From an uncultured delta proteobacterium (lineage in GTDB: Bacteria; Desulfobacterota; RBG-13-43-22), in NCBI GenBank assembly GCA_963711835.1, contig CAVQFQ010000017.1, positions 320,001-384,000 of the forward strand: a DNA stretch of 64,000 nucleotides. The letters are read 5' to 3'. The translations under genes and the position numbers were made by a program. Under the pieces are notes generated by a model, which did no database searches, was not told the origin of the DNA, and worked only from the letters and a program-made list of their open reading frames with translations. Shown one piece after another: positions 1,699-21,131 of this stretch. Each line of letters begins with the position of its first letter. Within the stretch, counting starts at the first letter, position 1.

Positions 1699-1699
1699 T

Positions 1700-4600
1700 T
1701 TATTCTCCCAGATCGCAGCGCAGGCAGCGCTTGGCTTCATTTCGACAATCCAGTTCGCTCAATCCAAGTTCGACGACGCAAAAATCCCTAATACGCTTAA
1801 CCGGTTCCTCCTCCGGCAGGCCGGGCCGCTTCAGGCTTTCTATCTCCTCCTCACTAACCGGGAGAGCTTCGATTCGTTCCCTCGGAGTGGGTATCTTCAC
1901 CTTTTCTTCCAAGGGCTCCCCCTGAAGGAAGCGGTGAATCGATCGGGCCGCCTGTTTGCCGGCTGCCACGGCTTCCACCACCGTGGCCGGTCCGGTGACA
2001 TTGTCTCCGCCGGCAAAGAGGCCGGGGATATTGGTGGCCAAATGAATGGGATGGGCCTCTACCAGACCGCGGCGTGAGTAGGCCAGACTTTCTCCGCCCA
2101 GGTTTAAGGCCAACGGCTCAGGGACCTGTCCGATGGCTTTGATGACTCCATCGATGGGCAGGGTGGTTTCCGAACCGGCAACCGGAATAGGACGTCTTCT
2201 TCCTGAGGCATCCGGCTCCCCCAGGGCCATGGCGATACAGACGATCCCGGTCAGGTTTTGATCATCCCCCAGGATCTCAACCGGCTGGGTCAGGTAGCTG
2301 ATTTCAATCCCCTCTTCCTTGGCCTGGATAATTTCATCGGCATAGGCAGGCATCTCGGCCTCGGTGCGGCGGTAGAGGATGGCCACCGAACTGCCCTGGC
2401 GCAAGGCGGTTCGGGCCGCATCCATGGCTACATTTCCGCCGCCTATCACGGCGATCCTTTTCCCCAGGGCGACCTTTTCTCCCAGGGCGACCCGTTTTAA
2501 AAATTCCACCCCCGAATAGACGCCCGGCAGGTCTTCCCCTTTTATTCCTAAGCGTACCTCCTGATGGGCCCCGCCGGCCAGAAAAAAGGCCTGGAATCCC
2601 TCCTTCTTCAGGTCATCCAGCGAGATGTCCCGGCCGATACAGGTCCCGGTTTTAAACCGGGCCCCCAGTCGGGCAATGGCCTGGATGTCAAATTCCAGGA
2701 CCTCCCTGGGGAGGCGGTAGCTGGGTATGCCGACCCGGAGCATGCCCCCTAAAACCGGCAGGGCTTCGAAGACCGTAACGGGATATCCCTGCCGGGTAAG
2801 GTAGTAAGCGGCTGTCAGGCCTGCCGGACCGGACCCGATAACGGCCACCTTTTGGGTATGAACCGGGTTGGTCCGTGGCTGCACTTCCCGGTGCTCCCGG
2901 ACAAAGTCGGCTACGAACCGTTTTAAGGATTTGATGGAAATGGACTGGTCCACTTCCCCTCGGCGGCACTGCAGTTCGCAGGGTGCGGGACAGACATAGC
3001 CGCACACGGCAGGCAATGGGTTGTCTTCCCGGATCAGGTTCAGGGCCTCCTCATACCGGCCATGACCGATCAGGGAAACATAGCTGGGCACGTCGATGCC
3101 TGCCGGGCAGGCAAACTGGCATGGGGCCGGGGAGAGGCGCTTACAGACCCGGGCCGGACAGGTTTTTTCTTTGATGTGGGCCTCATATTCATCCCGGAAA
3201 TATTTTAGGGTAGAGAGCACCGGGTTCGGAGCTGTCTTCCCCAGGCCGCAGAGGGCGGCCTCCTTGACTACCAGACAGAGTTCTTCTAAGAGAGGCAGGT
3301 GTTCTTCGGTACCTCGACCCTGGGTGATGTCGTCCAGGAGTTTGACCAGTCTCCCGGGTTCCCTCCCGGCAGGGGGTGCATTTGCCGCAGGATTCATCCA
3401 TACAGAAAGAGACGAAGAACTTGGCCACATCCACCATACAGGTATCTTCATCCATAACCACCATACCCCCAGACCCGACGATAGAACCGAGGGCGGTCAG
3501 GTTCTCATAATCCACGGGCACATCAATATGACTGTAAGGGATGCAGCCTCCGGAAGGGCCGCCAGTCTGAACGGCTTTATATTTTTTCTCATTCGGGATA
3601 CCGCCTCCTATGTCATAAATGATTTCGCGCAGAGGTATCCCCAAGGGGACCTCTACCAAGCCGGTATTGCGGATCTTTCCTACCAGAGAAAAGATCTTGG
3701 TTCCTTTAGATTTTTCGGTTCCGATGGCAGCGAACCAGGATGATCCGTTCTGGATGATCTTGGGGACCGTGGCCCAGGTCTCAACATTGTTGATGTTGGT
3801 AGGCTTGCCCCATAAGCCGCTTTGGGCGGGGAAGGGAGGCCGGGGACGGGGTTCCCCGATCTGATCTTCCAGGGAGGCGATTAGGGCTGTTTCCTCCCCG
3901 CAGACAAAGGCCCCGGCGCCTAATTTTACCTGGACCTCAAAGTCAAAACCGGAACCAAGAATGTCTTTCCCGAGGAACCCTTTCTCCCGGGCCTGCCGGA
4001 TGGCCAATTGAAGCCTGTCAACTGCCAAGGGATATTCCGCCCGGATGTAGACAATACCTTCTGTGGCGCCTATAGCATAAGCCCCGATAATCATTCCTTC
4101 AATGACCGCATGGGGATCCCCTTCAATAGTTGATCGGTCCATAAAGGCGCCCGGATCTCCCTCGTCGGCATTGCAAATGATGTATTTTTGATTACCCGGG
4201 GAGCGCCGGCAGGCCTCCCATTTGAAACCTGTCGGAAAACCTGCTCCTCCACGTCCTCTCAGCCCGGAGGCCTTGATTTCGGCAATTATTTCTTCGGGCT
4301 GCAATGCGGTCAGGGCTTTTTCTGCCGCCTGATATCCCCCGACGGATAGGTAGGCCTCTATGTCCTCCGGGTCGATTTGGCCGCAGTGAACCAGCACCAG
4401 TTTCTTTTGTTTCCCATGAAAAGTGGCATATTCCGGACCTACTTGCCATTCGGCTATGGGCTGGCCTTTTAGAATGTGTTCTTCAATTATCCTTTCCACC
4501 ATGTCAGGGGTAACGAATTGATAAGTTGTTGCTTTGCCCTCAATAATGATATCCACCAGTACATCTTTAGCGCAAAAACCCCGGCAGCCTACCTTATGGC

Positions 4601-4826
4601 TCTGGCATCTTTTCTTAAACTGTACGGGTAGTTTCTTACCCTTAAGTCCTTTCTTAAAGGCCTCGAGGACCTCCGCCCCGCCAGCGGCAATCCCTCCGGT
4701 GCCCAGACAGACTTTGATCAGGATTGAAGAAGGGAGAGGCTGGGAAGATTTCCTCTCGGTGATTACCTTTGCCTTCCTCGTACGGAGTGTTTTTTTTGAA
4801 CCGGTTTTGCTGCCCTTGATAACCAC
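1700..4826 (-). CDS. NuoF/HydB-like FMN/NADH subunit fused to a GltD/NfnB-like FAD oxidoreductase; one apparent +1 frameshift near 3350-3357
   Basis: ORF 3189..4826 has [36 protein letters not shown] and [15 protein letters not shown] 1700..3451 continues [21 protein letters not shown], then [27 protein letters not shown] and EAKRCLRC. Removing one base in CGGGAGACTGG joins the two frames. Confidence 0.85.
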
Positions 4827-4839: not shown

Positions 4840-5292
4840 TCATTTGTATTTTTTCAGTATTTCTTGAACCTGGTTTTGGTTCACATTCCCAAGGGTGTGC
4901 TTGTTGATGATCATGACCGGGGCCAGGCTGCAGGCTCCTACACAACGGACGGTTCCCAACGTAAAATTCATGTCCTCGGAGGTTTCCCCTTCATCCAGGC
5001 CCAGTTTCTTTTTCACCTCGCTCAAGATTCGAGGAGAACCCTTGACATGGCAGGCTGTCCCCAGGCACACATTCACTTGGTACCTTCCTTTCGGGGTCAG
5101 GCTGAAGAAATGATAAAAGGTGGCCATGCCGTAGAGTTGAGTCAGCGGGATTTTTGTCTTTTCAGAGAGATAGCGCAGGGCTTCTTCGGGCAGATAATTG
5201 AAAAGGGATTGAACCTCGTGTAGGATCGAGATCAGATTTCCTTTGGTTTCGGGATAGTTTTCAAGGATGAGATCAATTTCCTTTGACTCCAT
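4840..5292 (-). CDS. NuoE/HydC-like 2Fe-2S subunit
   Basis: ATFYHFF, VCLGTACHVKG and CVGACSLAP motifs; AGGAG upstream. Confidence 0.9.
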   Translation of the reverse strand: MESKEIDLILENYPETKGNLISILHEVQSLFNYLPEEALRYLSEKTKIPLTQLYGMATFYHFFSLTPKGRYQVNVCLGTACHVKGSPRILSEVKKKLGLDEGETSEDMNFTLGTVRCVGACSLAPVMIINKHTLGNVNQNQVQEILKKYK

Positions 5293-5435: not shown

Positions 5436-7574
5436 TCAAAGAGAGGCTTTGCTAACCCGGACTAGGCATTCGGTTAGATTGTTCCCTCCTCCCACAGGAT
5501 CATAGCGGGTCAGAAAACCCTTTTGCAGGCGCTGGTCGGCCATGCCCCGTTTATAGGCCCGGGTCTGGAGGGGTACGGTCCGCCCAAAACCGTGGTACAT
5601 GAATACGGCCTCCGGATCAATAAAGGGAGTGACCGAGGCTCGCCCCTGAATATGATAGCCGTTGCTTTCCACTTGAACCGGATCCCCATGACTCAACCCC
5701 ATTTGTTGAGCGGCCCGGGGATGGATCCAAAGGGTGTTTTCCGGCATGATCTCATGGAGCAGGGGGTTGTTCATGGTGTGGGCATGGTTATGCATGGCAG
5801 GCCGGCCAAAGAACAACCGGAATTCCCCGGGGGCCAGTTCAGGGGGGTCTTTAAACGCGGCCAGGCTGGGGAATCCCGCCTCGTTAAGAAGAGAGGACTC
5901 CAATTCAATTTTTCCAGAAGGGGTCTTGAATTTCAAGCCTTCCCGGCGATCCCAGAGGACCGGCTTTTCAGTCAGAACGACCAGGCCCTTTTCACGAATC
6001 CGCTCCAGGGGGATTCCTGTATCCTCTAATTGATAGCGCCAGATATCCTCTATGGTTTCGAAGTCAAAGTATTGGCCGGCACCCAAACGGCGGGCCAATT
6101 CTTTGAAGATCCACCAGGCCGGACGGGCATCGAACCGGGGGGCTACGGCCTGGTCGCGCATGGCTATATTGGGCTTAAGCCCGCTTTTATCCGCCAGGAT
6201 ATTGGCCCGTTCCAGATAGGTGGCCTCCGGCAGGATGACATCGGCAAACCAGCCTGTTTCACTATAGTTGACATCGATCGAAACCAGGAGCTTCAGCTTT
6301 TCATAGGCCCGGATCTGGGCCTCCGGATCGGGGAGCGCTGAAAGAGGGTCATGACGGTAAGTGATATAAGCCCCCACCGGGTAAGGATCCCCGCTTTCCA
6401 GGGCCGGGAAAAGAAGATGCAGAAGCCCTGCGCCCGGATCAAAGTGTTTATACCTCCAGCCCGCTCCATCCACCCGTTTTTCTTCTACCTTGGGGATTCG
6501 GTCCGCCAGCTTTTTTAGGCCGTTGCGTCCGGCGTCCTTGGCCTCTTTGGCAATAATCAACCCTCCCGGGGTTTCAATAGCCCCCAAAAGGGCATTCAAA
6601 AGGTAACTGGACCGGCTGGTATAAAAGGATTGCCCGTGGCGGGCGACCATCCAGCCGGGATGGAAAATAACCTGTGGGGCGTCGGCGGCGATCTCTCGAA
6701 CGAAGGCCCGGATCTCTCCGGCCGGTACACCGGTCTTGGTCTCGGCCCACTCCGGGGTCTTACCCCGGACCAGGTCCCTGATGGTCTCCAGCCCCAGACA
6801 CCAGCGGGCAACAAAATCCTTATCATACAGGTTTTCTTCCAGGATCTGCTGGATAAAGGCCAGATTCAGGGCATATTCGGTATTGGGCCTGATTTGCCAA
6901 AACCGGGTCGCTTTGCTGGCGGTCACGGTGGCCCTGATATCAATGTAGGTGCATTTGGCGCCCCGGTCGATGGCCTTCATAAATTCCTTGGCTTCCTTCA
7001 CCTGCAAAGATTCAAGGAGATTGCGCCCGAACAGGACGATGTGGTTGGTGTTCTTGATGTCATAGCTGAAACCCGTCCGGCCGAGACCAAAGATGCTCTT
7101 GGCCGCATGGTGAGCATTTCTCCCGCAGGTGCAATCGTGGTCAAAATAATTGGGTGATCCCAGGGCCTTCAAAAAACTCTTGGTCAGATCGGTAAAGGGT
7201 CCACCCCGGTCCGAGAGGACGATCCCCCGCCCGCCATATTCGTTAATGACTTCTTTTAATTTGGCGGCTACGTAATCCAGGGCCTCCTCCCAGCCGGCCG
7301 CCCGCCATTGTCCACTGCCCCGGGGGCCGGTCCGGATCATGGGCTGCTGGGGACGTTCGTCATCATATTCGAAGGCCAGCCCGGCCGATCCTTTGGCGCA
7401 CAAGCTGGTTTCCATGGCCTGGTCATGAGGATTACCCTGGATCCAGACAACCCGTCCATTCTCAACTTCCACCTGAATCGGGCAACGGACTGCACACATA
7501 CCGCATATGCTGTAGACCGTCCTCCGAGCGGACTGATCTATCCCGGCAACATTGGGGGCTTTACTCGACTTCAT
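5436..7574 (-). CDS. Molybdopterin oxidoreductase catalytic subunit, PsrA/PhsA (polysulfide/thiosulfate reductase)-like, no Tat signal
   Basis: CGMCAVRC...LCAKG N-terminal 4Fe-4S motif, GSPNYFDHDCTCG (Cys Mo-ligand region) and ADVILPEATYLER. Start placed at ATG 7574 after AAGGAG. No twin-arginine peptide is evident. Confidence 0.85.
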   Translation of the reverse strand: MKSSKAPNVAGIDQSARRTVYSICGMCAVRCPIQVEVENGRVVWIQGNPHDQAMETSLCAKGSAGLAFEYDDERPQQPMIRTGPRGSGQWRAAGWEEALDYVAAKLKEVINEYGGRGIVLSDRGGPFTDLTKSFLKALGSPNYFDHDCTCGRNAHHAAKSIFGLGRTGFSYDIKNTNHIVLFGRNLLESLQVKEAKEFMKAIDRGAKCTYIDIRATVTASKATRFWQIRPNTEYALNLAFIQQILEENLYDKDFVARWCLGLETIRDLVRGKTPEWAETKTGVPAGEIRAFVREIAADAPQVIFHPGWMVARHGQSFYTSRSSYLLNALLGAIETPGGLIIAKEAKDAGRNGLKKLADRIPKVEEKRVDGAGWRYKHFDPGAGLLHLLFPALESGDPYPVGAYITYRHDPLSALPDPEAQIRAYEKLKLLVSIDVNYSETGWFADVILPEATYLERANILADKSGLKPNIAMRDQAVAPRFDARPAWWIFKELARRLGAGQYFDFETIEDIWRYQLEDTGIPLERIREKGLVVLTEKPVLWDRREGLKFKTPSGKIELESSLLNEAGFPSLAAFKDPPELAPGEFRLFFGRPAMHNHAHTMNNPLLHEIMPENTLWIHPRAAQQMGLSHGDPVQVESNGYHIQGRASVTPFIDPEAVFMYHGFGRTVPLQTRAYKRGMADQRLQKGFLTRYDPVGGGNNLTECLVRVSKASL

Positions 7575-7811
7575 TCCCGTCTCCTTCCAAAAAATGGAAC
7601 GTGGTTTTTTATGAAAATTTATTCTAAATGGCCTCTCCAAATGATGTCAAGGTCAAAAATGGCCATTTTGCAATAGCCATTAAAAGGGATTATAATTTGA
7701 TGGACGATTAGAGGGCAGCTATGATAAAAAATTAATATAAGCATAGATGAACCTTTGGGAAATTGTGACTGTTGAGCGCAACCAATACCCCTATAAGACA
7801 GGAGAAGAGAT

Positions 7812-8324
7812 ATGAGTATTTACTACCTGTCCCATGATCCCAAGAATTGTATTAACTGCTATTCTTGCGAAATCCACTGTAAAACAAAGAACAACCTCCA
7901 GGTCGGCCCCCGTTTCTGCCAAATTGTCTCCGTAGGACCCAAGTTGGTGAAGGGCCTACCCAAATTAGGGCTGGTTTTTATGCCCTGCTTCCATTGTGAA
8001 AGACCCTGGTGTGTTTCAGCCTGCCCGACCGGGGCCATGCAAAAGCGTCCCAAAGACGGGATCGTCTTTGTAGATTCCACCTTGTGCGTTGGCTGTAAAA
8101 GCTGTATCACTGCCTGTCCCTGGGGGGCGCCGCAGTGGAATCCGGATACAGGCAAGGCCATTAAATGCGATTACTGTAAGGATCGGGTGGATGCCGGCTT
8201 GAAACCGGCCTGTGTCACTAAGTGCCTGACCCAATGCCTGGATTTCGGCCAGGTTACCGATGAGGCGACACAAAAGAAACGGGATCGTTTTGCCAAGGCG
8301 GTGGCCTTTGACCTGGCGGATTAG
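7812..8324 (+). CDS. 4x[4Fe-4S] electron-transfer subunit (PsrB/DmsB-like)
   Basis: CINCYSCEIHC, CFHCERPWCVSACP, CVGCKSCITACP and KCDYC..PACVTKC. Confidence 0.9.
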   Translation: MSIYYLSHDPKNCINCYSCEIHCKTKNNLQVGPRFCQIVSVGPKLVKGLPKLGLVFMPCFHCERPWCVSACPTGAMQKRPKDGIVFVDSTLCVGCKSCITACPWGAPQWNPDTGKAIKCDYCKDRVDAGLKPACVTKCLTQCLDFGQVTDEATQKKRDRFAKAVAFDLAD

Positions 8325-8391
8325 GATAAGAGAGTTGGGCTGGGGGTGATCACGGTAGGACCCTTTAAACCCATAAAGGAAACCATAAAAA

Positions 8392-8763
8392 ATGGCTGAA
8401 ATAAAATTTTATAAAGAACATACCTGGGTGCGTCCGGAAGGCGATATCGGGACCGTCGGTTTGTCTCATTATGCCCAGGAGCAGATGGGCCAGATTATCT
8501 ATGTCGATCTGCCTGAGGAAGGCCGGGAGATTACCGCTGGAGAAGAATTCGGAGCCCTGGAATCCAACAAGGTAGCTTCCGATCTGATCGCCCCGGTCAG
8601 CGGGGAAGTCCTCGAATCCAACCCGGCCCTTGAAAACCAGCCGGCCTTAATCAATGATTCCCCTTATGATCAGGGTTGGATAACGAAAGTCAGGCTCAGC
8701 AGCCCGGAAGAACTGGACGGCTTGATGGATGAAGCAGCCTATCTGAAGTTGGTTTCAGGATAA
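8392..8763 (+). CDS. gcvH: Glycine cleavage H-like lipoyl carrier protein
   Basis: HTWV..VGLSHYAQ..ESNKVASDLIAPVSG..INDSPYDQGW; the lipoyl Lys is retained. Confidence 0.9.
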   Translation: MAEIKFYKEHTWVRPEGDIGTVGLSHYAQEQMGQIIYVDLPEEGREITAGEEFGALESNKVASDLIAPVSGEVLESNPALENQPALINDSPYDQGWITKVRLSSPEELDGLMDEAAYLKLVSG

Positions 8764-8780
8764 GTTAAGGCCTATAAAGT

Positions 8781-10223
8781 ATGAGCAAGCGAATCGGCAT
8801 CATCGGCGCCGGACCGGGAGGTTACATCGCCGCTATCCGGGCGGCTCAGTTGGGGGCCCAGGTGACGGTGGTCGAACAGGAGGCCGTCGGCGGCTGCTGT
8901 TTGAACTGGGGCTGCATTCCCACCAAAACCATCAGAACTACCGCCGAGACCCTGGAGCGCTTTCACCGGGCCAGGGAGCTGGGGATTGATCTGGAGGGGG
9001 GCTTTCGGCCCAATATGGAGCGGATCATGGCCCGGAAAAACGAGGTCATCGCCATCCTGGCTCAGGGCATCAAAAAGATTTTTGAAAGCTATCGGATCGC
9101 CTTTCTTGAGGGGACGGCAACGGTCAGGGATCCGAACACCTTATCGGTTACGGGAAAGGATGGAAGCCGACAAGAACTGCGGGTGGACAACATCATCCTG
9201 GCCTCCGGATCCAGACCGCTGGACTTCCCGGCCTTTCCTTTTGACGGCCGCCATATCCTGTCCAGCAATGACGCCCTGCTCTTGAAAGAGGTCCCCGAGT
9301 CCCTCCTGGTCGTCGGCGGCGGGGTCATCGGCTGCGAATTCGCTTTTATTTTCAGTCTCCTGGGATCCCAGGTGACCGTCGTGGAGGCCCTGTCCCGGGT
9401 GATCGGCCTGCCTTCCATCGACGAAGACTGTTCGGCTGTTATCCTGCGGGAGATGAAGAAGCGCAAGATCAAGGTCTATCTGGATAAGACCATCGAAAAA
9501 ACCGAGATCCAAAACGGCCGGGTCAAGGCCCGCATCGGCCCTTCGCCTTTTTTAACCGAGGCCAGGGAAAAAGACAAAAAGCCCATCGAGCTGGAAATCC
9601 ACAAGGTGCTGGTCTCCATCGGCCGGCAATCCAATACGGATGATCTTGGGCTGGACCGGGTTGGCGTGGCCCTGGATGATCGGGGCTGGATCAAGGCCAA
9701 TGACCGGCTGGAAACCAATGTCCCCGGCATCTATGCCATCGGAGATGCCTTGGGTCCGGCCAGGATCATGCTGGCCCATGTGGCCTCCACTGAGGGCATC
9801 GCGGCCTCGGAAAATATCATGGGAGGCCAACGCGTCATGGATTACCAAGTGGTGCCCTCGGGTATTTTCACCTTTCCCGAGGTGGCTAATGTGGGCCTGA
9901 CCGAGCTGCAAGCCCGGGAGCGGGGCTTGGAATGGCGTTCCGACAGCTTTCAATTCCGGACCCTGGGCAAACCCCAGGCCATGGGAGAGATCGTGGGCCA
10001 GGTCAAAATTGTCTCGGACAACAGGACGCGGAAGATTTTAGGGGTTCATATCGCCGGACCCCAGGCCACGGATCTGATCGCCGAAGGAGCGCTGGCCATG
10101 CAACTGGGGGCCACGGTTGAGGACCTGGCCCATACTATCCACGCCCATCCCACCCTGGCCGAGGCCGTCATGGAGGCGGCCCATAAGGCCCTGGGCACCG
10201 GCCTGCACGGATTAAAAGAATAG
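8781..10223 (+). CDS. lpdA: Dihydrolipoyl dehydrogenase (E3)
   Basis: GAGPGGY, GGCCLNWGCIPTK redox disulfide, GGGVIGCE and C-terminal HAHPTLAE. Confidence 0.93.
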   Translation: MSKRIGIIGAGPGGYIAAIRAAQLGAQVTVVEQEAVGGCCLNWGCIPTKTIRTTAETLERFHRARELGIDLEGGFRPNMERIMARKNEVIAILAQGIKKIFESYRIAFLEGTATVRDPNTLSVTGKDGSRQELRVDNIILASGSRPLDFPAFPFDGRHILSSNDALLLKEVPESLLVVGGGVIGCEFAFIFSLLGSQVTVVEALSRVIGLPSIDEDCSAVILREMKKRKIKVYLDKTIEKTEIQNGRVKARIGPSPFLTEAREKDKKPIELEIHKVLVSIGRQSNTDDLGLDRVGVALDDRGWIKANDRLETNVPGIYAIGDALGPARIMLAHVASTEGIAASENIMGGQRVMDYQVVPSGIFTFPEVANVGLTELQARERGLEWRSDSFQFRTLGKPQAMGEIVGQVKIVSDNRTRKILGVHIAGPQATDLIAEGALAMQLGATVEDLAHTIHAHPTLAEAVMEAAHKALGTGLHGLKE

Positions 10224-10379
10224 AACGGATGACGGATATCGGATGTCTGATACCAGCTGGCGGATGTCAGATGCAGGATATTTAGCTTACGGAATTATTA
10301 CCCGGGATCTGGGAGGGTTTAAAAAGGCCAAGATCCCGGTCTATTCACCTTCCGAGTTTATCCAGGCATTCTTCCCTTC

Positions 10380-11435
10380 TTAGCTCTTATCACTCACCCC
10401 CGCCGATTCAAAGGTGGCCATCTCGTTATAGATCTTGACCGCCGCCTCAATGATGCCCATGGCCAGGGCCGCTCCGGTTCCCTCGCCCAGCCGCAGGCGC
10501 AGGTCCAGTATCGGCTCGACCTTGAAAATTCTTAAGAAAGTGGCGTGGCCCGCCTCCTCGGAACGGTGGCTGAAAAATAAGTAGTCCCGGACCTCGGGAG
10601 CTATTCGACAGGCCGCCAGGGCCCCGGCCGAGGAGATAAACCCGTCCACAACCACAGGGATGCGGAGCGAGGCCGCTCCCAAACAGAGACCGGTGATCCC
10701 GGCGATCTCCAGTCCTCCCAGGGCGGCCAGGGTGCTCAGGGGATCCCCCAGCCTTTTTTGATTTACCTTTATGGCCTTTTTAATAACCTCTATTTTGTGG
10801 TTCAGCCTGGCTTCGTCGATCCCGGTGCCGCACCCGGTGATATCCTCGACCGGACAGGGAAGCAGGACTGCGAAAAGGGCCGAAGAAGCGGTGGTGTTGG
10901 CGATCCCCATATCCCCGGTGCCGATGAGGCTAACGCCGTCGCGGGCCGCTTCCCGGGCTAATTCAATGCCGGCCTCCACGGCCTGAACCGCTTCCTCCAA
11001 TTTCATGGCCGGCTTCCTGGCGATATTGTCGGTCCCGGATCTGATTTTTCTGCGAACCAGGCCGGTGACATCCTCCAGGGGATCATCCACCCCCATATCC
11101 ACCACACACAACTCGGCCCCGATATGCCGGGCCAGGACGTTAATGGCCGCCCCCCCGGACAACATATTCCTGACCATCTGGGGGGTGACCTCCTTGGGAT
11201 AGGCCGATACCCCTTCCACCGCCACGCCATGGTCGCCGCCAAAGGTAACAATCCTTTTTTTGCCCAATCGGGGCCGGGTGGTCTGGGTAATAAGGCCATA
11301 CTGGACGGCCAGGTCTTCCAGCCGTCCCAAGCTTTTGGGCGGCTTGGTCAACCGGTCGAGATGGGCTCGAAGCGACGGTTCCAGGCTGAAGTCCACCGGC
11401 TTTATGGACTGGACGGTTTCATTTACTTTATTCAT
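10380..11435 (-). CDS. cobT: Nicotinate-nucleotide--dimethylbenzimidazole phosphoribosyltransferase
   Basis: [30 protein letters not shown] and LRLGEGTGA motifs; lies downstream of a B12 riboswitch. Confidence 0.95.
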
Positions 11436-11471
11436 AAAGGTTCCTCCTTAAATAAACGGAAATCAAAGCTG

Positions 11472-11514
11472 AAAATAAAAAGGCCCCCTTCTTCATGGAA
11501 GAAAGGAGCCCTTT
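11472..11514 (-). terminator. Intrinsic terminator / attenuator in the cobT leader
   Basis: On the minus strand, GGCTCCTTTCTTC-loop-GAAGAAGGGGGCC is followed by a U-rich tract, between the riboswitch and cobT. Confidence 0.7.
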
Positions 11515-11544
11515 ACCATCAGGTTCCTGGTCTGCGCACAGCCT

Positions 11545-11716
11545 CCTGGTCGTCTTCTGGCTTCCCCGGTCTTTAACCGGCCTTCCCATCCCGCTTAGGC
11601 GGGACAGTGGCCGGACTGGTTAAAAGACTTCTCTCCCTGTTAGAAGAAAAGCGGGGTTACAGCGGCGGGACCGCCACGGATTCGCACCGTGTTCCGTTAC
11701 CGGCAGGCTATACCGT
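11545..11716 (-). ncRNA. Cobalamin riboswitch (ends approximate)
   Basis: The minus strand contains GGAACACGGTGCGAATCCGTG, CCCGCCGCTGTAA, GCCACTG...GGGAAGGC and the B12-box-like AAGCCAGAAGAC, upstream of cobT. Confidence 0.9.
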
Positions 11717-11789
11717 AATCAACAAATTTTTAACTCGACTCCCGAAGATTGTCAATAAAAAAAATAGGGGACGTTGGTGCAGAAAGTGC

Positions 11790-11818
11790 TTGACTAAGTT
11801 GGACTTTAACGTTACTAT
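11790..11818 (+). promoter_or_regulatory. Sigma70-like promoter of the RAYT gene (probably leaderless)
   Basis: TTGACT-17 nt-TACTAT, ending 7 nt before ATG 11826; no SD sequence. Confidence 0.6.
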
Positions 11819-11825
11819 ATACATT

Positions 11826-12815
11826 ATGCCCAGATCAGCACGATTAGATGCGCCGGGGGTGTTGCACCATGTAATCGGACGTGGAATTGAGGGGAGACCC
11901 ATCTTTCCCTCCGGTAAGGATGGGGAGGACTTTATTTCTCGTCTATCCGCTCTGGTTGATACGCAGGCCATGGACGTTTACGCCTGGGCTTTATTGCCTA
12001 ACCATTTTCATCTTCTCTGCAAAACTAAACACAAACCATTGGCCTGGAGTATGCGCAAGCTTCTCACCGGCTATGCCGTCAATTTTAATAAAAGATATAA
12101 AAGGCAGGGGCATCTATTCCAGAATCGTTATAAATCCATCGTCTGCCAGGAAGAAGCCTATTTATTGGAGCTGGTCCGGTATATTCATCTGAATCCTTTG
12201 CGGGCGCGACTGGTTGATCGCCTGCATGAATTGAACTATTATCCCTGGTCGGGGCATTCCGCCCTGTTAGGGCGAAGAAACAGACCGTGGCAGGATATTA
12301 ATTATGTTCTTGGCTATTTTGGAAAAGGAAATATCGGCCCTAAAAAATACCTGCAATTCATTAAAGAAGGAATGGTTCAAGGCAAAAGGCCTGATTTAGT
12401 CGGAGGGGGTCTTATCCGCAGTTCGGGGGGATGGTCCGAGGTCTTAAGTCTCAGAAAACGGGGAGAGAAGGAAGCCAGTGATCAGAGAATCTTGGGTGAG
12501 GGAGATTTTGTGGAAAAGGTTTTATCCGAAGCCACCAATTTTCAGAAGGAGGTTTTGGGCCTGAACAAGAAAAAATTGGATCTGCCTAATTTGGCTTCAA
12601 GGATTAGCGCTCGGCAGGGGATTTCTCTGGATGAACTTCTATCCGCCAGCCTCAGAAAGGAGATCGTCGAAGCCCGCCGGGTTTTGGCTTGGCTTGCAGT
12701 AAAGGTCTTGAGGTACTCCGGGGCGGAAGTCGCCCGCTACCTGGGCGTAACGAGTTCCTGTATAAATCGGTCCCTGTCCAGGGGAGATAGTCCCAAGCAG
12801 GAAGAATACTTATGA
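11826..12815 (+). CDS. REP-associated tyrosine transposase (RAYT / Y1_Tnp) with C-terminal HTH-like extension
   Basis: MPRSARLDAPGVLHHVIGRG, HUH motif in PNHFHLL, GHLFQNRYKS and RYIHLNPLRA (catalytic Tyr). Confidence 0.9.
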   Translation: MPRSARLDAPGVLHHVIGRGIEGRPIFPSGKDGEDFISRLSALVDTQAMDVYAWALLPNHFHLLCKTKHKPLAWSMRKLLTGYAVNFNKRYKRQGHLFQNRYKSIVCQEEAYLLELVRYIHLNPLRARLVDRLHELNYYPWSGHSALLGRRNRPWQDINYVLGYFGKGNIGPKKYLQFIKEGMVQGKRPDLVGGGLIRSSGGWSEVLSLRKRGEKEASDQRILGEGDFVEKVLSEATNFQKEVLGLNKKKLDLPNLASRISARQGISLDELLSASLRKEIVEARRVLAWLAVKVLRYSGAEVARYLGVTSSCINRSLSRGDSPKQEEYL

Positions 12816-14551
12816 GCCTGGAAGCAATCCCTGCACCAACGTCCCCTAAATTGGTGGGCCTTAATTTGGGGTTGGTTCCTTTTAGGGAGGCCTGGGAGTT
12901 GCAGAAAGAATGGGCGGCGCAGCGGCGGGAGGGGACATTGCCGGACGGATTGATTCTGCTGGAACATCCGCCGGTCTTGACCCTGGGCCGGTGGGGGAAA
13001 AAGGAAAATCTTAAGGTCTCGGCCGATTATTTAAAGCAGAAAAACATGGCTCTGATCCGCTGCGAACGGGGAGGAGAGATCACCTACCATGGTCCGGGAC
13101 AGTTGGTGGGCTACCCCATCTTGAGGTTGCAGTCATTCCAGCTCGGCGTCAGGACCTATGTCAGCCGTCTGGAGGAAGTCCTGATCAACACCCTGTTTGA
13201 TTTTGGTCTGGTCGCCGGTCGCCGGGAAGGATTTCCGGGTGTCTGGATCAACCAGCATAAGATCGCTTCTATCGGGATTGCCGTCCAAAAGGGCATTGCT
13301 TTTCATGGCTTTGCCCTGAACTACGCCCCTGATTTGGACCACTTCCGCCTCATCACCCCGTGCGGCTTGCCGGGTGTTGAAATGACCTCCATAGAAGCCA
13401 TGACCGGCAGACCCTTAGACCCTCATTATTTAAGGGAACGGGTGACCCGCAATTTCGGAGAGGTCTTCGGGGCTGAAATAGTCCCGGTAAGCCTTGAGGC
13501 TTTAAATCTGGAAACTGTGTCGCAATTACCAAAACGTCATTCCGGACGAGATCCGGAATCCATCCCGCCGAAGGCGGGACTGGATCCCGGCTCCCTTGGC
13601 CGGGATGACGAATTAAGACGCAGTCTTCAGCTAAAAAAGCCCCTCTGGCTCAAAAAAAAGATCCCTTCGGCAGGTTCCAGCGCCCAGGTCAAGGCCCTGA
13701 TCCGGAAGGGCGGGCTGCATACCGTTTGCCGGGAAGCCCAGTGCCCCAATCAGGGGGAATGTTTCAGCCGGGGAACGGCCGCCTTTCTGCTCATGGGAGA
13801 CCGCTGTACGCGCTGCTGTACTTTCTGTGCCGTGTCGCCCGGCCTTCCGAACCCATTAAACCCGGATGAACCGGCAGAGATCGCCCGGGCCGTAAAGAAG
13901 ATGGGGCTTTCCTATGCGGTCCTGACCTCGGTCACCCGGGACGATCTGTCTGACGGCGGGGCCGGCCATTTTTGTGAAACCATCGAGGCTATCGGCCGGA
14001 TCGTGCCTCAAACACAGGTCGAATGTCTCATCCCCGACTTCCAGGGATCGAAATCGTCCCTGGATCTGGTAGCCCGGACCGATCCGGCTGTCATCAATCA
14101 TAACCTGGAAACCGTGGAGCGTCTCTATCCCTCGGTGCGGCCAGGAGCGGATTTCAAACGCTCCCTCCAACTTATCGGATATCTCAAAGAAACTTTTCCC
14201 GGGCTATTGACCAAATCAGGGATTATGGTAGGATTGGGAGAGACCCGGGAGGAGACCAGGAGGGTCTTGGAGGATCTCCGGGATCAGGGCTGCGCCATCC
14301 TGACCATCGGCCAGTATCTGCAGCCTTCTCCAAAACATCATCCGGTAGTGCGATATGTTCCTCCCGATGAATTTGCAGGATGGGAGGAAGAGGCCTGCCA
14401 ACTGGGCTTTAAAGCCGTGGCCTGCGGTCCTTTTGTTCGCAGCTCCTTTGAGGCCGAAGGCCTTTATGCCAAGGCGGGGTCCAGCCCGCCCCGGCGGATC
14501 GGCGACCCCTCCCCCATCGGGGAGGAGAAAATATTTTGTTGCCTATCCTGA
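12812..14551 (+). CDS. lipB-lipA: Fused octanoyltransferase LipB - lipoyl synthase LipA
   Basis: N-half: LEHPPVLTLG, RGGEITYHGPGQLVGYPI, KIASIG, HGFALN, PCG. C-half: CREAQCPNQGEC, CTRCCTFC, NHNLETV, GQYLQPS, VRSS. Confidence 0.92.
   Translation: MSLEAIPAPTSPKLVGLNLGLVPFREAWELQKEWAAQRREGTLPDGLILLEHPPVLTLGRWGKKENLKVSADYLKQKNMALIRCERGGEITYHGPGQLVGYPILRLQSFQLGVRTYVSRLEEVLINTLFDFGLVAGRREGFPGVWINQHKIASIGIAVQKGIAFHGFALNYAPDLDHFRLITPCGLPGVEMTSIEAMTGRPLDPHYLRERVTRNFGEVFGAEIVPVSLEALNLETVSQLPKRHSGRDPESIPPKAGLDPGSLGRDDELRRSLQLKKPLWLKKKIPSAGSSAQVKALIRKGGLHTVCREAQCPNQGECFSRGTAAFLLMGDRCTRCCTFCAVSPGLPNPLNPDEPAEIARAVKKMGLSYAVLTSVTRDDLSDGGAGHFCETIEAIGRIVPQTQVECLIPDFQGSKSSLDLVARTDPAVINHNLETVERLYPSVRPGADFKRSLQLIGYLKETFPGLLTKSGIMVGLGETREETRRVLEDLRDQGCAILTIGQYLQPSPKHHPVVRYVPPDEFAGWEEEACQLGFKAVACGPFVRSSFEAEGLYAKAGSSPPRRIGDPSPIGEEKIFCCLS
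13508..13630. mobile_element. 123-bp MITE-like element with a CGTC-REP pair, in frame within the LipB-LipA linker
   Basis: Outer imperfect IR CTGGAAACTGTGTCGCAATT / AATTAAGACGCAGTCTTCAG; inner CGTCATTCCGG..CCGGAATCCA and CTGGATCCCGG..CCGGGATGACG. Confidence 0.75.
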
Positions 14552-14672
14552 TGGTCAGGAATAAATTCTTAAGAATACAGGGTATAAGAATCTGAAGTTG
14601 AATTACCCCTTTCAAAAGGGTACAATACCGTTTAAAAATTAATGTCCGGAACGTGATCAGGAGGTAGATCCT

Positions 14673-15170
14673 ATGTCTCTGAAAAGAAGCCACCAGGGGA
14701 GAAAATGCATCCGCGGGGGGCTCATCCTGCTCGGTCTATTCTTATTTTTTGGCACCCTATCCTGCAATTCCGGAACCGGCAGCAGCACCAGTACTACCTC
14801 AACCGGTGGGGGAGGAGGGGTAGGCTGGACGATTTCAGTCAAGACCACCACCAACACCGTTTCCTTATCCCTGAATCAGACTACCTCGGTCATTGTCCAG
14901 GTCAAAGACGGCGCCGGCGGGCCGGCCCCTAAAGGGACACGTATCTGCGTCTCCGTCGCCCGGGGTACGATTTGGGTCGATGAGATCGGGAAAGACGAAC
15001 CGGTTATTACCGGATGCGCCCCTACCGGCAATGATATCGGGCAATTGATGGGGACTTATGTTCCGAACCGAGGCAATACTCAAGATAATCCATTCGCACC
15101 GGGGCATGATTATATCGATGCCTCTTCCCAGGGGGTTTTTGGAACAGTGACTATAAATGTAGTTCCCTAA
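14673..15170 (+). CDS. Putative lipoprotein with an Ig-like (invasin/Big-like) domain
   Basis: Basic N-terminus, hydrophobic stretch, TLSC lipobox-like motif, Ser/Thr/Gly linker and beta-rich domain (VIVQVKDGAGGP). Confidence 0.6.
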   Translation: MSLKRSHQGRKCIRGGLILLGLFLFFGTLSCNSGTGSSTSTTSTGGGGGVGWTISVKTTTNTVSLSLNQTTSVIVQVKDGAGGPAPKGTRICVSVARGTIWVDEIGKDEPVITGCAPTGNDIGQLMGTYVPNRGNTQDNPFAPGHDYIDASSQGVFGTVTINVVP

Positions 15171-15186
15171 TGTAAGGAGGTGCCTA

Positions 15187-16446
15187 ATGGTCAAACGATT
15201 TTTTTATTTGTTCCTGGTCTTTTTAGTTCCGACTTTATTTCTGGTATTCCTTGAAAAAGACGCTCCTCAGGCCCTGCCCTCGGCCGGCGCTGCCGGGGAA
15301 CAAAAGGCCCCGGCCCCTTCGGGCGGGCCGGGTGCAGTGACCATCCAGGCGGACAAGGCCTCGTTGAACAACGGCGGAACCCTGACCGTTACAGGCCAGG
15401 CCCCGGCCGGCAAACCGGTTTATCTGGAGATTTTCGCCGAAAAAAAGGTGCGGGCCAATCTTTTCGACAACAAGAAAGATGAAAAGACCGGACAAATCCC
15501 TTACATTCTCTATTTGACCGATGAGATGCCCGGTTATTACAAGATCATCGTGCCCAAGGACCAGCAGGGGAAACTGGAGGTCGTAAAGAAAGAAGGCCGG
15601 AAATGGTCTTTTTCCAAGGCCCTCAAAGACCTGGGTGCGGATGTGGCCTACAGCGCTCCGGGCAGCATAAAAATTGATAAATATAAGGCCTCCATTCTGG
15701 CCAGCATCATCGGGTCCCGCGGGGAACTGTTGCCGGCCATGGATCCCCAGGAAAACAAAAGGCGGTCCATGCAATTAGTCAAGTCCCGCTTCCGGAATGT
15801 GGATAAGGTCCTGGCGGCTGCCGTGGAAACCAATCCCGACGGGACCTATAAGGCCACCTTCAATATCCGGTCCGGTTTGCCGGACGGTCGATACACCATC
15901 GTAGCGACAGCGGGTAAAGACCTTAAAAGCCAACCCCTGACCTTTGAAAACAAGATCAGCTTCCCCACCCTTTACCTCAGCAACGCCGGGACCAGCCTCA
16001 ATCTGTTCTGGCCCTTTTTGCTTACCCTGGCCATCGCCATCTTCGGGGTCCTCATGGGCGCCGGTGGCGGATTTATTCTAAATCCCCTCCTGGTCCTGAT
16101 CTGGCCTCTGCCCCACAATGTGGTGGCCGGCACGGTTATGCCCACCGTGGCTTTTTCCCAGGCCAGCGGCATCTATAATTACTCCAAGATCAAGTTCATC
16201 AACTGGAAAGTGGGGGTCATCGTCGGCTGCTCCATGCTGGCCGGCGGATTCATCGGCCCCAAGTTGACCGAACTTCTTACTTTGGATCAATACAAGTTTA
16301 TCTTCGGCTGGATCCTTCTGGTCCTGGCGGTCCTGCTCTTCTGGCAGACCACCAAGAGTTATGTGAATAAGAACAAGAAGGAGCAGGCCATCCTGAAAGA
16401 ATTCAAGAAACGAGCCGAAGAAGCGGCCAAAGGCAAAAAGGGTTAA
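15187..16446 (+). CDS. TauE/SafE (TSUP) exporter, N-terminal half, with a large extracytoplasmic domain
   Basis: Signal/anchor, about 250-aa soluble region, then GVLMGAGGGFILNP..VAGT..INWKVG transmembrane repeat. Confidence 0.8.
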   Translation: MVKRFFYLFLVFLVPTLFLVFLEKDAPQALPSAGAAGEQKAPAPSGGPGAVTIQADKASLNNGGTLTVTGQAPAGKPVYLEIFAEKKVRANLFDNKKDEKTGQIPYILYLTDEMPGYYKIIVPKDQQGKLEVVKKEGRKWSFSKALKDLGADVAYSAPGSIKIDKYKASILASIIGSRGELLPAMDPQENKRRSMQLVKSRFRNVDKVLAAAVETNPDGTYKATFNIRSGLPDGRYTIVATAGKDLKSQPLTFENKISFPTLYLSNAGTSLNLFWPFLLTLAIAIFGVLMGAGGGFILNPLLVLIWPLPHNVVAGTVMPTVAFSQASGIYNYSKIKFINWKVGVIVGCSMLAGGFIGPKLTELLTLDQYKFIFGWILLVLAVLLFWQTTKSYVNKNKKEQAILKEFKKRAEEAAKGKKG

Positions 16447-16471
16447 TCCGGGTTTAAGTTAGGAGGAGGAT

Positions 16472-16864
16472 ATGGAAATAGATTTCTGGGGACAAAAATT
16501 CAAGGTCAATATGGTCATCGGCTGCATCGGGGGATTTATCATTGCCATAGTGGCTTCCATGTTCGGTTTCGGGGGCGGGCCTTTTATGATGCCCCTGATG
16601 GCCCTGGGCATGGGACTGCCCATGTATGTGGTGGTGGGAAGTTCTCTTTTGGCCATCTTTTTCAACACCGTCATCGGTTCCCTGCAGCATTACCGTTTCG
16701 GAAATTTTGATTTCCTGTTTTTCCTGATCATGTTCCCGGCGGCCATCCTGGGCGGCTACATCGCCCCGCAGATCGCCAAGCGGGTCAGCCCCCTATGGAT
16801 CAAGCGCATTGCCGCCGCGGGACTGGTGATTCTGGGCCTGATTTTACTGGGCGTGATTTTTTGA
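16472..16864 (+). CDS. TauE/SafE (TSUP) exporter, second half
   Basis: ASMFGFGGGPFMMP..VVGSSL repeat; has its own strong RBS AGGAGGAGG. Confidence 0.8.
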   Translation: MEIDFWGQKFKVNMVIGCIGGFIIAIVASMFGFGGGPFMMPLMALGMGLPMYVVVGSSLLAIFFNTVIGSLQHYRFGNFDFLFFLIMFPAAILGGYIAPQIAKRVSPLWIKRIAAAGLVILGLILLGVIF

Positions 16865-17673: not shown

Positions 17674-17817
17674 TAGTGTAGTGTCTCAGACAAGTCTTTA
17701 CAACGTCTTAAAGAGCAGTCATTCCCGCGGAAGCGGGAATCCAGAAATAAAAAAACTGGATTCCGGGTCAAGCCCGGAATGACGGCACTGTAAAGCCATT
17801 ACGGAGACACTACATTA
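17674..17817. mobile_element. MITE-like element carrying a CGTC-REP pair
   Basis: Outer IR TGTAGTGTCTC-8nt-CTTTACA / TGTAAAG-8nt-GAGACACTACA. Inner GTCATTCCCGCGGAAGCGGGAATCCAG (17718-17744) and CTGGATTCCGGGTCAAGCCCGGAATGACG (17756-17784). Confidence 0.75.
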
Positions 17818-19688
17818 GGATCAGGGATAATTACCTTGGTTAAAGAAACCATAAATTCGCCCGCCTTTTGCACCCCGATCACCCGGGTTCCCGGAATCTC
17901 TTTTCCCTGATCATCAAAAAATAAGACCGCCGGTGGGCCGAAGAGGCCGAACTGCTTAAGCAGGGCCTCGGTTTCGGCCGTGTTCCGGGTGACATCGGCT
18001 TTGATCAAGGTCAGCCCCTTAAGTGCCTGTTGTACTTTTGGATCGGCAAAGGTGAAGCGCTCCAATTCCTTGCAGGCCGTGCACCAGTCCGCGCTCACAT
18101 AGAGCATCACCGGCCGGCCGGATGCCTCTTTTAAAAATCTCTCCAGTTCTCCGAGACTAGTCAGGGATTGAAAGGCAGGCATTGAGGTTGGAGGTTGGAG
18201 GTTGGAGGCGGGAGGAAAATTCTTGCGGTCCAGTCGGTTCAGTCCTGGACCTGATCTCGGATAAGGGCTGCAACAGGTCTTTCCCTCCCGAAAGGGCCCC
18301 AATGATCAAAACAATTCCGACCAATAAAACAAGGACGCCGATTCCCTTCCGGAATTTGGCCCATCCACCGGCCGGGACAGGCAAGGGATCGAGGGAATTT
18401 AAATAGATCGAGCTGATAATCAGTAAGGCCCCCCAGAGAAATAGGGTGACCGGACCGGGTATAACCGGGGAGACGATCCAGACGGCTACACCCAACAGGA
18501 TCCAGCCGAAGAAGGCCTTGATGGCCATCATCCACTCCCCGGCCCGGGGCAGCAGAAAGCCGGCCGAGGTTCCCAGGATCAGGAGCGGCACCCCCATTCC
18601 CAGGGCCAGGGAAAAAAGGGCCGTCCCGCCCAGCCAGACATCCTGGTGCCGGCTGATATAAATAAGGGCCCCGGCCAGGGGCGCAGTGACACAGGGGCCG
18701 ATAATCAGACCTGAAAGCACCCCCATGATAAAGACCCCCAGAAAAGTGCCGGCCTTTCGTTTGTTGCCGGCGGCGGTCATTTTACCCAGGAAGGAACCGG
18801 GGAGCTGTAAATCATACCATCCGAACATGGACAGGGCCAGGGCGACAAAGATCAGGGCAAAACTTCCCAAAACCCAGGGATTCTGCAAAGCGGAGGCGAT
18901 AAGTCGGCCCGATAAACCGGCCGCCACCCCGGCGGCCGTATAGGTCAGGGCCATGCCCAGGACATAGGTCAGGGAAAGGAGAAAAGACCGGATTTTTGTG
19001 GCTTCTTGGCCCTGGGCCACGATAATTCCCGAAAGGATGGGGATCATGGGAAAGACGCAGGGAGTCAGGGACAAGAGCAGGCCCAGTCCGAAAAAGGTCA
19101 GGATAACCATGAAGAAATTTTTCCGGCTGAAGAGCCCGGAGATATCACCGCCGATCCCTTTTCTCCATCGATGTCTTGCTTACTTGGGGCTGTCCCCTCC
19201 CCGGCGGGAGGGGATGAGGGGAGGTTGAATGGCGGAGACGCGGGGAGGGGGGACGCGGAGAGGGAAGAAAGATCGAGCTGAAACTTCTGCACCTTCGGCG
19301 GATAGCACAGCCCGGCATCGGAACAGCCCTGATAGGCGATGGAAAGGGCCAGGGTCTGTTTTTCCTTGGGTCGGCCTTTAAAGGGGAGTTGGACCGAAAC
19401 CGTATCCCGGTAAATTTGGGTGGATCCGAAATAAGGATCTTTTTTGACCCGGCCCTTCGGAAGTGCTACCGGTTCCAGGGAAAATTCCTCGGGCAGGAGG
19501 GCAAACTTTAATTTGTCCCGGTAAAGATAGTACCCCTCGGCGATGCGGACCGTTACTTCTATGCGGTCCGGCTGGGCGATCCGGGCCTGTATCTGAAAGG
19601 CCTGTTCGGGTTTAAGAGGCTGGCTGTTTCCCAGTGAAGGTAAAAAGAATGAAAGAATAAGGAGCAGAGAAAAAATTAGGTTGGCCAT
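17799..19688 (-). CDS. dsbD: Thiol:disulfide interchange protein DsbD, split into three ORFs by two frameshifts (about 19156 and 18200)
   Basis: Alpha domain GYYLYR..YQGCSDAGLCYPP, beta domain LTPCVFPMIP..GPCVTAP and gamma domain ADWCTACK lie in consecutive overlapping frames. Confidence 0.85.
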
Positions 19689-19734
19689 GGAGGCGTATTG
19701 AATAATGTATTATTTTAGCTGATAAATCATTTAA

Positions 19735-19821
19735 AAATCCCTCCCAACCTCCCTTTGATAAAGGGAGGGGACTATTGGAAGGATTCCCCCCCCTTTGAGA
19801 AAGGGGGGAAAGGGGGGATTT
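19735..19821. repeat. C/G-tract palindromic repeat (CCCTTTG..AAAGGG family)
   Basis: Two hairpins, CCTCCCTTTGATAAAGGGAGG and CCCCCCTTTGAGAAAGGGGGG, inside AAATCC...GGATTT; related to 52446-52492. Confidence 0.7.
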
Positions 19822-19918
19822 GTCGAAAGGTTTTTCAAGTCCTAAGGGACGGTTTTAAGAATCTCTTCGGCATTTTTCAGGTAAGGCAGGGCTTCCGTCA
19901 TCATCACGTCCTATTTTT

Positions 19919-20335
19919 TTACTGCTTATAAACAAAGATGCTCACATAGGCGATGGCCCCACGGTAGGAGGCGGTAACCTGATCCACGACGCTGGTTTGA
20001 GTAGTGGTGGTGCTGGCCGCCGGGGCCGTGTAAACCGCGTGGGACACCCCGCCGTCCAATGGGGTGGCCACTGAAAAGGTCCCGCCCTGGGTGGAGGAAT
20101 AGGTGATGGCTGTGGTGGAGGAATCATTGACCGGGTTTCCGGAGGCGTCCTTCACGGAGACGATCAGGGTAGACTGCCCCCCATAGGGAATGGTGGTGTT
20201 AGTGGCCGTCAGGCTCATGGTATATCCGGAGCCCGAACCATATCCGCTGGAACTGAGGGTGTTGGAAGAACAGCCGGCAAAACCCAAAAGAGCCAAAAGA
20301 GCGACGATCCAAAACCAGGTTTTAATGTGGGACAT
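19919..20335 (-). CDS. Putative lipoprotein with an Ig-like domain
   Basis: FAGC lipobox, Ser/Gly linker, LIVSVKDASGNPV. Confidence 0.7.
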   Translation of the reverse strand: MSHIKTWFWIVALLALLGFAGCSSNTLSSSGYGSGSGYTMSLTATNTTIPYGGQSTLIVSVKDASGNPVNDSSTTAITYSSTQGGTFSVATPLDGGVSHAVYTAPAASTTTTQTSVVDQVTASYRGAIAYVSIFVYKQ

Positions 20336-20349
20336 TTTTCCCTCCGTTA

Positions 20350-21102: not shown

Positions 21103-21131
21103 TTGACAAAACCCCCTCAACTTGCTATGGA
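21103..21131 (+). promoter_or_regulatory. Putative sigma70 promoter of the porin gene
   Basis: TTGACA-17 nt-TATGGA with an extended TG. Confidence 0.45.

Follow-up and report, generated by a model that had tools for sequence, protein, structure and literature searches.

An orphan lipoyl H-protein module beside genes for a cytoplasmic PhsAB-like enzyme in an uncultured sulfite-reducing member of the Desulfobacterota

The stretch of DNA analysed here, 64,000 nucleotides of contig CAVQFQ010000017.1 (positions 320,001 to 384,000; assembly GCA_963711835.1 of an uncultured delta proteobacterium, lineage RBG-13-43-22) and called the window below, encodes a GcvH-like lipoate-binding H protein, a dihydrolipoamide dehydrogenase (LpdA) and the lipoylation enzymes LipB and LipA near a PsrA/PhsA-type molybdoenzyme and a TauE-type carrier (Table 1). 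A sequence-only reading had placed gcvH and lpdA in one orientation behind a psrB-like gene, as they are (all three on the plus strand, 7812-10223), with lipB-lipA and TauE following; both do follow on the plus strand, but lipB-lipA is one fused open reading frame (ORF) and TauE is split in two. Its clustering of these genes with the Psr-like enzyme holds for psrB, which is co-oriented, but not for psrA, which is encoded on the minus strand, faces away from psrB and leads its own operon of nuoE, nuoF-gltD and Fe-S subunit genes. The interval from lpdA to lipB is filled by cobT with a riboswitch and by a RAYT-type element; because these interrupt it, the run from psrB to TauE is not a single operon. 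Misassembly as the cause of the divergent psrA and psrB is ruled out by the same layout in the metagenome loci L181 and L186, where the window arrangement recurs, and by L022, in which fmdE lies between the two genes (G, L and C numbers denote genomes, loci and the contigs of the window's own assembly, G000). The candidacy of cobT as a part of the module was rejected, its one other linkage among the loci examined being 12 kb from lpdA in G014. With up to 5 mismatches allowed, 17 sites of the genome match the 27-nt end motif of the RAYT-type element. The nuoF-gltD fusion, frameshifted in the window, is one ORF of 1052 amino acids in L022, and an RNA-library contig of a relative has one base missing at 3349 by comparison with the window.

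Table 1. Features at the locus, in window coordinates.
Feature	Position	Strand	Remarks
NuoG-N/HoxU-like 2Fe-2S + 4Fe-4S subunit of flavin diaphorase module	919..1740	-	
NuoF-GltD fusion, NAD(P)H flavoprotein	1700..4826	-	single frameshift near 3349
NuoE-like 2Fe-2S subunit	4840..5292	-	
PhsA/PsrA-like Mo/W-bis(pyranopterin guanine dinucleotide) subunit	5436..7574	-	cytoplasmic, lacking a twin-arginine translocation (Tat) signal
Back-to-back sigma-70-like promoter matches	7621..7696	11/12 minus, 10/12 plus	consensus match only
PsrB/PhsB-like 4Fe-4S subunit	7812..8324	+	
Orphan H protein (H1 clade), gcvH	8392..8763	+	lipoyl Lys60, no Cys, isoelectric point (pI) 4.2
Dihydrolipoamide dehydrogenase LpdA	8781..10223	+	TIGR01350 507 bits, cut-off 409; motifs
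cobT + cobalamin riboswitch	10380..11719	-	outside module
RAYT/IS200-type element	11765..12848	+	27-nt inverted ends, overlaps lipB start
LipB-LipA fusion, de novo lipoylation	12812..14551	+	one ORF
Ig-like (Big-1/invasin-like) lipoprotein	14673..15170	+	atlas feature score 0.91, lead only
TauE N-half	15187..16446	+	soluble N-terminal extension
TauE C-half	16472..16864	+	split conserved in relatives
dsbD (three frames), two more small lipoproteins, porin-like gene	17799..22476		

GcvH, LpdA, LipA and LipB of the window all score above their NCBIfam cut-offs, and the redox motif of LpdA, the radical-SAM motifs of LipA and the catalytic motifs of LipB are intact. The H protein, called H1 here, scores 137 against TIGR00527 (cut-off 116) and 149 against NF002270 (cut-off 117); its lipoyl lysine, Lys60, is conserved without exception among the 18 orthologues aligned. 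It contains no cysteine (orthologues have 0-1) and is acidic, with a pI of 4.22 and a net charge of -15 as values for the whole protein rather than its surface. With the glycine cleavage H protein it shares fold family, lipoyl lysine, acidic character, maturation by LipB/LipA and an L-protein partner. Nevertheless its membership of the canonical glycine cleavage system (GCS) group was rejected, in keeping with the sequence-only reading: the assembly holds neither P nor T protein, and H1 forms one clade with the H protein of an operon in G202, apart from gcvP-linked H proteins, in both trees (support 99/95 with 72 proteins and 93/88 with 61 proteins, deep nodes being weak). An approximately unbiased (AU) test gives p=0.013 against H1 joining the GCS H protein of G001, for a group that was named after seeing the tree, and the lysine motif is ES[SN]K in H1 compared with ESVK in GCS H proteins. 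A similar lysine motif occurs in the GcvH of an acetogen Wood-Ljungdahl cluster (L189), which likewise falls outside the GCS-linked group, deep branches again being weak. The acetogen gcvH and lpdA resemble those of the window in lying outside a gcv operon, and a similar shuttle use has been considered for them and judged unlikely for MetVF (PMC8760232); they differ in that the window genes are not in an acs cluster, the acs genes being on C10.

The suggestion that H1 might act like LbpA of the sulfur-oxidizing sHdr pathway stands as far as the retained lysine goes. In both cases a GcvH-like lipoyl carrier stands outside glycine cleavage, and LbpA is a proposed sulfur or electron holder recycled by a dihydrolipoamide dehydrogenase (PMC6067878; PMC10332631). 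H1 is not LbpA, however, because the defining traits of LbpA are two conserved cysteines close to its two termini, a basic ligase-facing surface and maturation by sLpl(AB)-LipS1/S2 (PMC6067878; PMC10332631; 10.64898/2026.10.01.755906), whereas H1 lacks the cysteines, is acidic and pairs with LipB-LipA. It neighbours lpdA and the fusion gene, with no shdr cluster nearby and a LipS2 model score of 29.7 bits against a cut-off of 270. The neighbour here is instead a molybdoenzyme in a DsrAB sulfite reducer, so that the direction is probably reductive.

Both the catalytic subunit of a PsrA/PhsA-type enzyme, with its aligned cysteine, and the 4Fe-4S B subunit are encoded in the window. The NCBIfam model that fits PsrA best is PhsA (E 2.5e-171; 571 bits, under the curated cut-off of 694), and the best PDB match is Thermus PsrA (2VPW, E 5.5e-114), in which the cysteine that serves as molybdenum ligand is aligned to a cysteine of the window protein. 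The Tat motif is absent from all 14 members checked of the clade of PsrA and present in L044-L047, and no gene in the cluster encodes a membrane-anchor C subunit. In lacking both, the window enzyme, whose reductase activity is a prediction, differs from the respiratory PhsABC/PsrABC reductases. It resembles the cytoplasmic PhsAB-like enzymes of Desulfobacterota, which consist of a Tat-less A and a B subunit with no membrane anchor, often with TauE (PMC13490349, the Dissulfuribacter protein being matched by description). In Dissulfuribacter, both the PhsAB-like pair and a TauE accompanied by a membrane partner go up under thiosulfate disproportionation (PMC13490349). PsrA is about 50% identical to proteins from loci of Thermodesulfatator, Desulfocapsa and Dethiosulfatarculus, which differ from the window in having no lipoyl module within the flanks fetched. 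In G008 and G020, psrB directly precedes lpdA, and their PsrB shares 79-81% identity with that of the window, whereas the window PsrA is only 50% identical to theirs and groups with Desulfarculus-type sequences; this suggests that the psrB-lpdA link outlived an exchange of psrA.

The assembly (3.9 Mb, 89% complete, 6.4% contaminated, G+C content about 0.53) carries dsrABD, dsrC and dsrMKJ and has no match to aprA. The bacterium is thus a sulfite reducer with DsrAB and without AprA, and would need a source of sulfite other than sulfate. For the same reason the export of sulfite by TauE, which the sequence-only reading had proposed, seems less likely than the uptake of a sulfur oxyanion.

No gcvP, gcvT or gene for a 2-oxoacid dehydrogenase E1 or E2 component occurs among the ORFs scanned in the window, as the sequence-only reading had noted, and gcvP and gcvT have no match in the assembly as a whole (gcvT was searched in this genome, gcvP and E2 in all 21 genomes of the family, which are the basis of family-wide counts unless a smaller denominator is given). 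The only E2 of the assembly is truncated, adjoins a frameshifted sucA and lies in a stretch of C5 with a G+C content of 0.60-0.70; from this composition and breakage we read it as foreign DNA, and for the same reasons the sucA/sucB of C5 was rejected as a client of the module. The sucCDAB genes of this stretch are presumably alphaproteobacteria-like. High-G+C stretches at contig starts (C5:1-48000, C4:1-12000, C7:1-8000) are probably contamination or chimeric scaffolds. The remaining three PF00364 matches of the assembly have biotin-type motifs. In the assembly, the lipoyl module has neither a glycine-cleavage nor a native E2 client, which also sets it apart from 2-oxoacid and acetoin dehydrogenase complexes. 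The picture of a genome lacking any other lipoyl gene is less clean: C4 carries an E1 alpha/beta pair with no E2 neighbour, C21 a second lysine-bearing H protein (H3, below) and C11 a second lipA-lipB pair (L096:12583-17189), which follows genes for an acyl-CoA dehydrogenase and an amidase. Two divergent LplA-like ligases are encoded in acyl-CoA degradation clusters (C6:157433-158530, C15:89007-90191).

Across the family, an H1 orthologue with an identity of at least 53% is present in 20/21 genomes, lpdA in 16/21, lipA in 18/21, gcvP in 7/21, E2 in 8/21 (the foreign one included), a psrA orthologue in 13/21, dsrA in 18/21 and aprA-family matches in 14/21. Where gcvP is present, a different H protein adjoins it (7 genomes of 7), and the set of H1, lpdA and lipA occurs in the absence of both gcvP and E2 in five genomes (G003, G008, G009, G010, G014). 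For two of these, G010 and G014, the top PF00364 hits are biotin carriers (two weak hits in G014 being left untranslated), and the lgt-linked H protein has no lipoyl lysine; the only lipoyl acceptor found in them is therefore H1, which implies that it and LpdA run a cycle of their own. Of the 15 other family genomes in which LpdA has a match, 14 show an identity of 73-78%, which argues against decay, and H1 with LpdA appears to be retained for its own sake.

A conserved neighbourhood, the remaining expectation of the sequence-only reading, is found within the family and mostly not at PhsAB-like loci beyond it. Both lpdA and psrA are present in 12 family genomes, and in 9 of these they are at most 8 kb apart, in several gene orders; gcvH, lpdA and lipB/A were found at none of 24 PhsAB-like loci judged, 21 of them by record title, to lie outside the family, within fetched flanks of 2.8-22 kb. 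Beyond the family, in f25, G114 has lpdA 6 kb from psrAB-gltD, and G202 has a co-directional run of DUF169, lpdA, hdrC, hdrB, fdhA, tauE, gcvH (H1 clade), a transmembrane protein gene, lipB, lipA and an FAD oxidase gene (L140:8165-19298), with identities to the window of 66% for LpdA and 63% for the H protein. The fdhA of G202 has a stop right after its CARL motif, as expected for a putative selenocysteine. Of the 20 family genomes assessed, 10 have TauE no more than 5 kb from H1 or lipB/A, as does G202, and three TauE subtypes stand beside lipoyl genes: the split type, the G202 type (in G004) and a third (in G003 and G020). In G029 the G202-type TauE and its partner are followed by a rhodanese and then psrAB. 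Searches of an atlas with the N-terminal domain of the window TauE gave scores all below 0.8, and DUF169 has no PDB relative by sequence. Frequent neighbours of H1 in the family are dsbD (three frames at 17799-19688 of the window, compared with one ORF of 633 amino acids in L085), small lipoproteins and the porin-like gene, and the Ig-like lipoprotein is often near H1 or lipA. Contigs from the RNA libraries of a sediment study, mostly 90-99% alike, span psrA, psrB, lpdA, lipB/A and tauE; being blind to strand, level and co-transcription, and possibly DNA, they carry zero weight for mechanism.

Gene content and neighbourhoods suggest that the module is plug-in in nature, other genomes pairing it with HdrCB-formate dehydrogenase or with DUF169; what these settings appear to share is an LpdA-cycled lipoyl-H protein placed beside varied enzymes that handle disulfides or sulfane sulfur. 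This repeated placement, together with the published precedents, favours a stand-alone, NAD(H)-linked dithiol/disulfide lipoyl shuttle, which we regard as the probable function of H1 and LpdA. That the shuttle is partnered here by the adjacent cytoplasmic PhsAB-like thiosulfate reductase system is a more tentative reading, a good possibility rather than a probable one. LipB-LipA would lipoylate Lys60 of H1, and NADH would reduce lipoyl-H1 via LpdA; a TauE-type carrier would import thiosulfate, or a similar oxyanion of sulfur, for cleavage by PsrA, with PsrB and the NuoE/NuoF-GltD/Fe-S diaphorase feeding that enzyme; the sulfane sulfur would pass to dihydrolipoyl-H1, which would let it go as sulfide and return to the disulfide; and the resulting sulfite would pass to the DsrAB of the genome. 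Dihydrolipoate is known to accept sulfane sulfur from rhodaneses (PMC6067878), while PMC12440151 and PMC13564433 have no bearing on what the partner is.

Several observations weigh against such a partnership. PsrA already has a flavin electron-input operon of its own, and both the frameshift in nuoF-gltD and the element at the start of lipB may mean that the window copy is impaired. The potential of thiosulfate reduction is about -0.4 V. Compared with this, lipoamide, at -0.29 V (PMC6067878), would be a weak reductant for thiosulfate. Members of the family are kin, so that the linkage counts overstate independence, and the PsrA of G114 groups with the family sequences; TauE went undetected in the vicinity of lipoyl genes in 10 of the 20 family genomes assessed, and lipoyl genes are missing from the outside-family PhsAB-like loci, as given above. 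G003, G010 and G014 (97-100% complete) keep H1, lpdA and lipA without a psrA orthologue, and G010 and G014 (100% complete) are also without dsrA and aprA and have DUF169 before lpdA and glutaredoxin-FTR-beta before lipB-lipA. In genus g4, H1 lies away from psrA, with lipB-lipA, the Ig-like lipoprotein, dsbD and the porin gene, and in G011 and G013 lpdA is unlinked from psrA. Finally, gcv genes lie near 8 of the 20 close outside-family relatives of lpdA with loci fetched, so this type of LpdA is not special in itself. Nothing found overturns the Psr-linked lipoyl pathway of the sequence-only reading, but the link is optional in both directions, the module persisting in G010 and G014 without psrA, dsrA and aprA, and PhsAB-like loci outside the family mostly doing without the module.

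The persistence of the module in these two genomes, which lack dissimilatory sulfur genes, supports a rival reading, a general thiol-redox or antioxidant chain. In it NADH, LpdA and lipoyl-H1 would reduce a disulfide protein or a peroxidase, with OsmC, glutaredoxin/FTR-beta, DsbD, DUF169 and FmdE as candidates, and the proximity to psrAB would be inherited synteny. In both, lipBA-H1 adjoins dsbD as well as glutaredoxin-FTR-beta, and G007, G009 and G019 have a parallel module of gcvH, DGC, OsmC, lpdA, lipA and lplA genes. Precedents exist in Trichomonas, where H and L proteins form a dithiol electron chain that feeds OsmC (PMC7946386), and in Hyphomicrobium, where GcvH stands beside OsmC and the same role is proposed (10.64898/2026.10.01.755906). 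H1 differs from the Trichomonas system in having no observed OsmC neighbour; what it is linked to is PhsAB-like, TauE, HdrCB-Fdh or DUF169 genes. The one OsmC match of the genome is unlinked, on C12, and the glutaredoxin and FTR-beta genes of the window are about 30 kb off. With the three TauE subtypes and the G202 operon also left unexplained, we consider such a chain unlikely, if a credible competitor.

Less likely still is a module in the service of the second H protein, H3, which retains its lysine and whose gene follows hdrB in 13 of the 14 family loci fetched: LipB-LipA would lipoylate H3, LpdA would recycle it, and its lipoyl group would be the disulfide substrate of HdrB, with H1 left as a scaffold or as another substrate of HdrB. 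The H3 operon has no lipA/lipB or lpdA match, H1 itself lies within the hdrCB operon of G202, in G004 and G007 the neighbours of lipBA-TauE include hdrA-mvhD-metVF genes, and GcvH has been proposed as the HdrB disulfide in Culexarchaeia (10.1101/2022.04.06.487207). However, G003, G010 and G014 have no H3 match yet retain H1, lpdA and lipA, and the second lipA-lipB pair, on C11, could serve H3. Least probable of all is an ordinary client that was missed or has left a remnant: gcvPT or the E2 of an acetoin or pyruvate dehydrogenase might lie in the 11% that is not assembled, or the solitary E1 alpha/beta pair of C4 might use the module. Although the assembly is incomplete, H1 passes the canonical GcvH cut-offs and some family genomes do hold gcvP or E2, the five genomes with the module and neither gene, the separate H proteins of gcv operons and the conservation of LpdA all speak against it.

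Shuttle and PhsAB-like partner taken together, the preferred reading could be widened to a lipoate-dependent dissimilatory reduction of thiosulfate or sulfane sulfur, a reductive mirror of sHdr-LbpA in which a dedicated lipoyl-H protein would take the sulfane of the molybdoenzyme and LpdA would recharge it with NADH. The phylum might then have three or more orphan lipoyl-H lineages (Psr/TauE-, HdrB- and OsmC-linked), this one among them, and would use them as a protein-bound disulfide currency replacing CoM-S-S-CoB; in this full extent the proposal is speculative and on balance unlikely. Orphan modules of H and L proteins are known, as are cytoplasmic PhsAB-like enzymes; what is new is the combination of the two, which was not found in the literature searched, most subscription papers and supplements lying outside its coverage. 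Few lipoate-dependent systems are known, and the module touches two questions: how sulfur and electrons are handled in sulfur reducers and disproportionators by cytoplasmic PhsAB-like enzymes that lack an anchor, and on which disulfide bacterial HdrB proteins act. Both are open to in vitro testing, with LipB-LipA, H1, LpdA and PsrAB as one small expressible set and HdrCB-FdhA of G202 with an H protein of the same clade as a second.

The H3 lineage (motif ESGKWVGR; L016:3421-16324 on C21, with L120-L132, L139 and L284-L304) is arguably of more interest than the module of the window. Its setting is metV-metF-hdrA-hdrA-mvhD-hdrC-hdrB-gcvH-FAD oxidase/CCG-(dehydratase)-CoA ligase, and of the 21 top-ranking loci from outside the family, 12 have hdrCB at a distance of 1.5 kb or less and 19 a match to FAD-oxidase/CCG. 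Matches at E<=1e-30 occur in 87 of 401 genomes of the phylum, the low end of which takes in ordinary GcvH. H3 has a strong claim to being the disulfide that bacterial HdrB uses as substrate. Another orphan module, gcvH (motif ETIK), DGC protein, OsmC, lpdA, lipA and lipoate ligase, lies next to the arsenite exporter gene acr3 (L312:6415-11299, L313 and L314, from G007, G009 and G019). The H protein of the run ileS-lspA-lgt-gcvH(-sir2) (L015:9631-10892 on C17, and L305-L311) no longer carries the lipoyl lysine in any of the 6 family copies read but does carry it in family f18; the gcvH of G317, 3.8 kb from psrA, is this housekeeping copy and was dropped as support for the Psr link. Three proteins of about 300 amino acids join an N-terminal Cys-rich part to a GcvH-like domain (L014:16388-17299, L017:9348-10256, L018:9408-10343); two are encoded beside sigma-54 two-component genes, and one lies 3 kb left of the window.

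Elsewhere in the window, an AbrB-type antitoxin and PIN-domain pair lies just 3' of tauE (16918-17615), minus-strand genes for HdrA-like, MvhD and Mvh-type NiFe hydrogenase proteins lie at 28127-33357, and glutaredoxin, FTR-beta, nifU, nifS and flavodiiron protein genes lie at 41169-46878, a block that directly adjoins H1 in G008 and does so partly in G010 and G014. To the left of the window (L014:1430-12643) are two further TauE genes, genes for an Alph_Pro_TM protein and two-component regulators, and a PEP-synthase-like gene.

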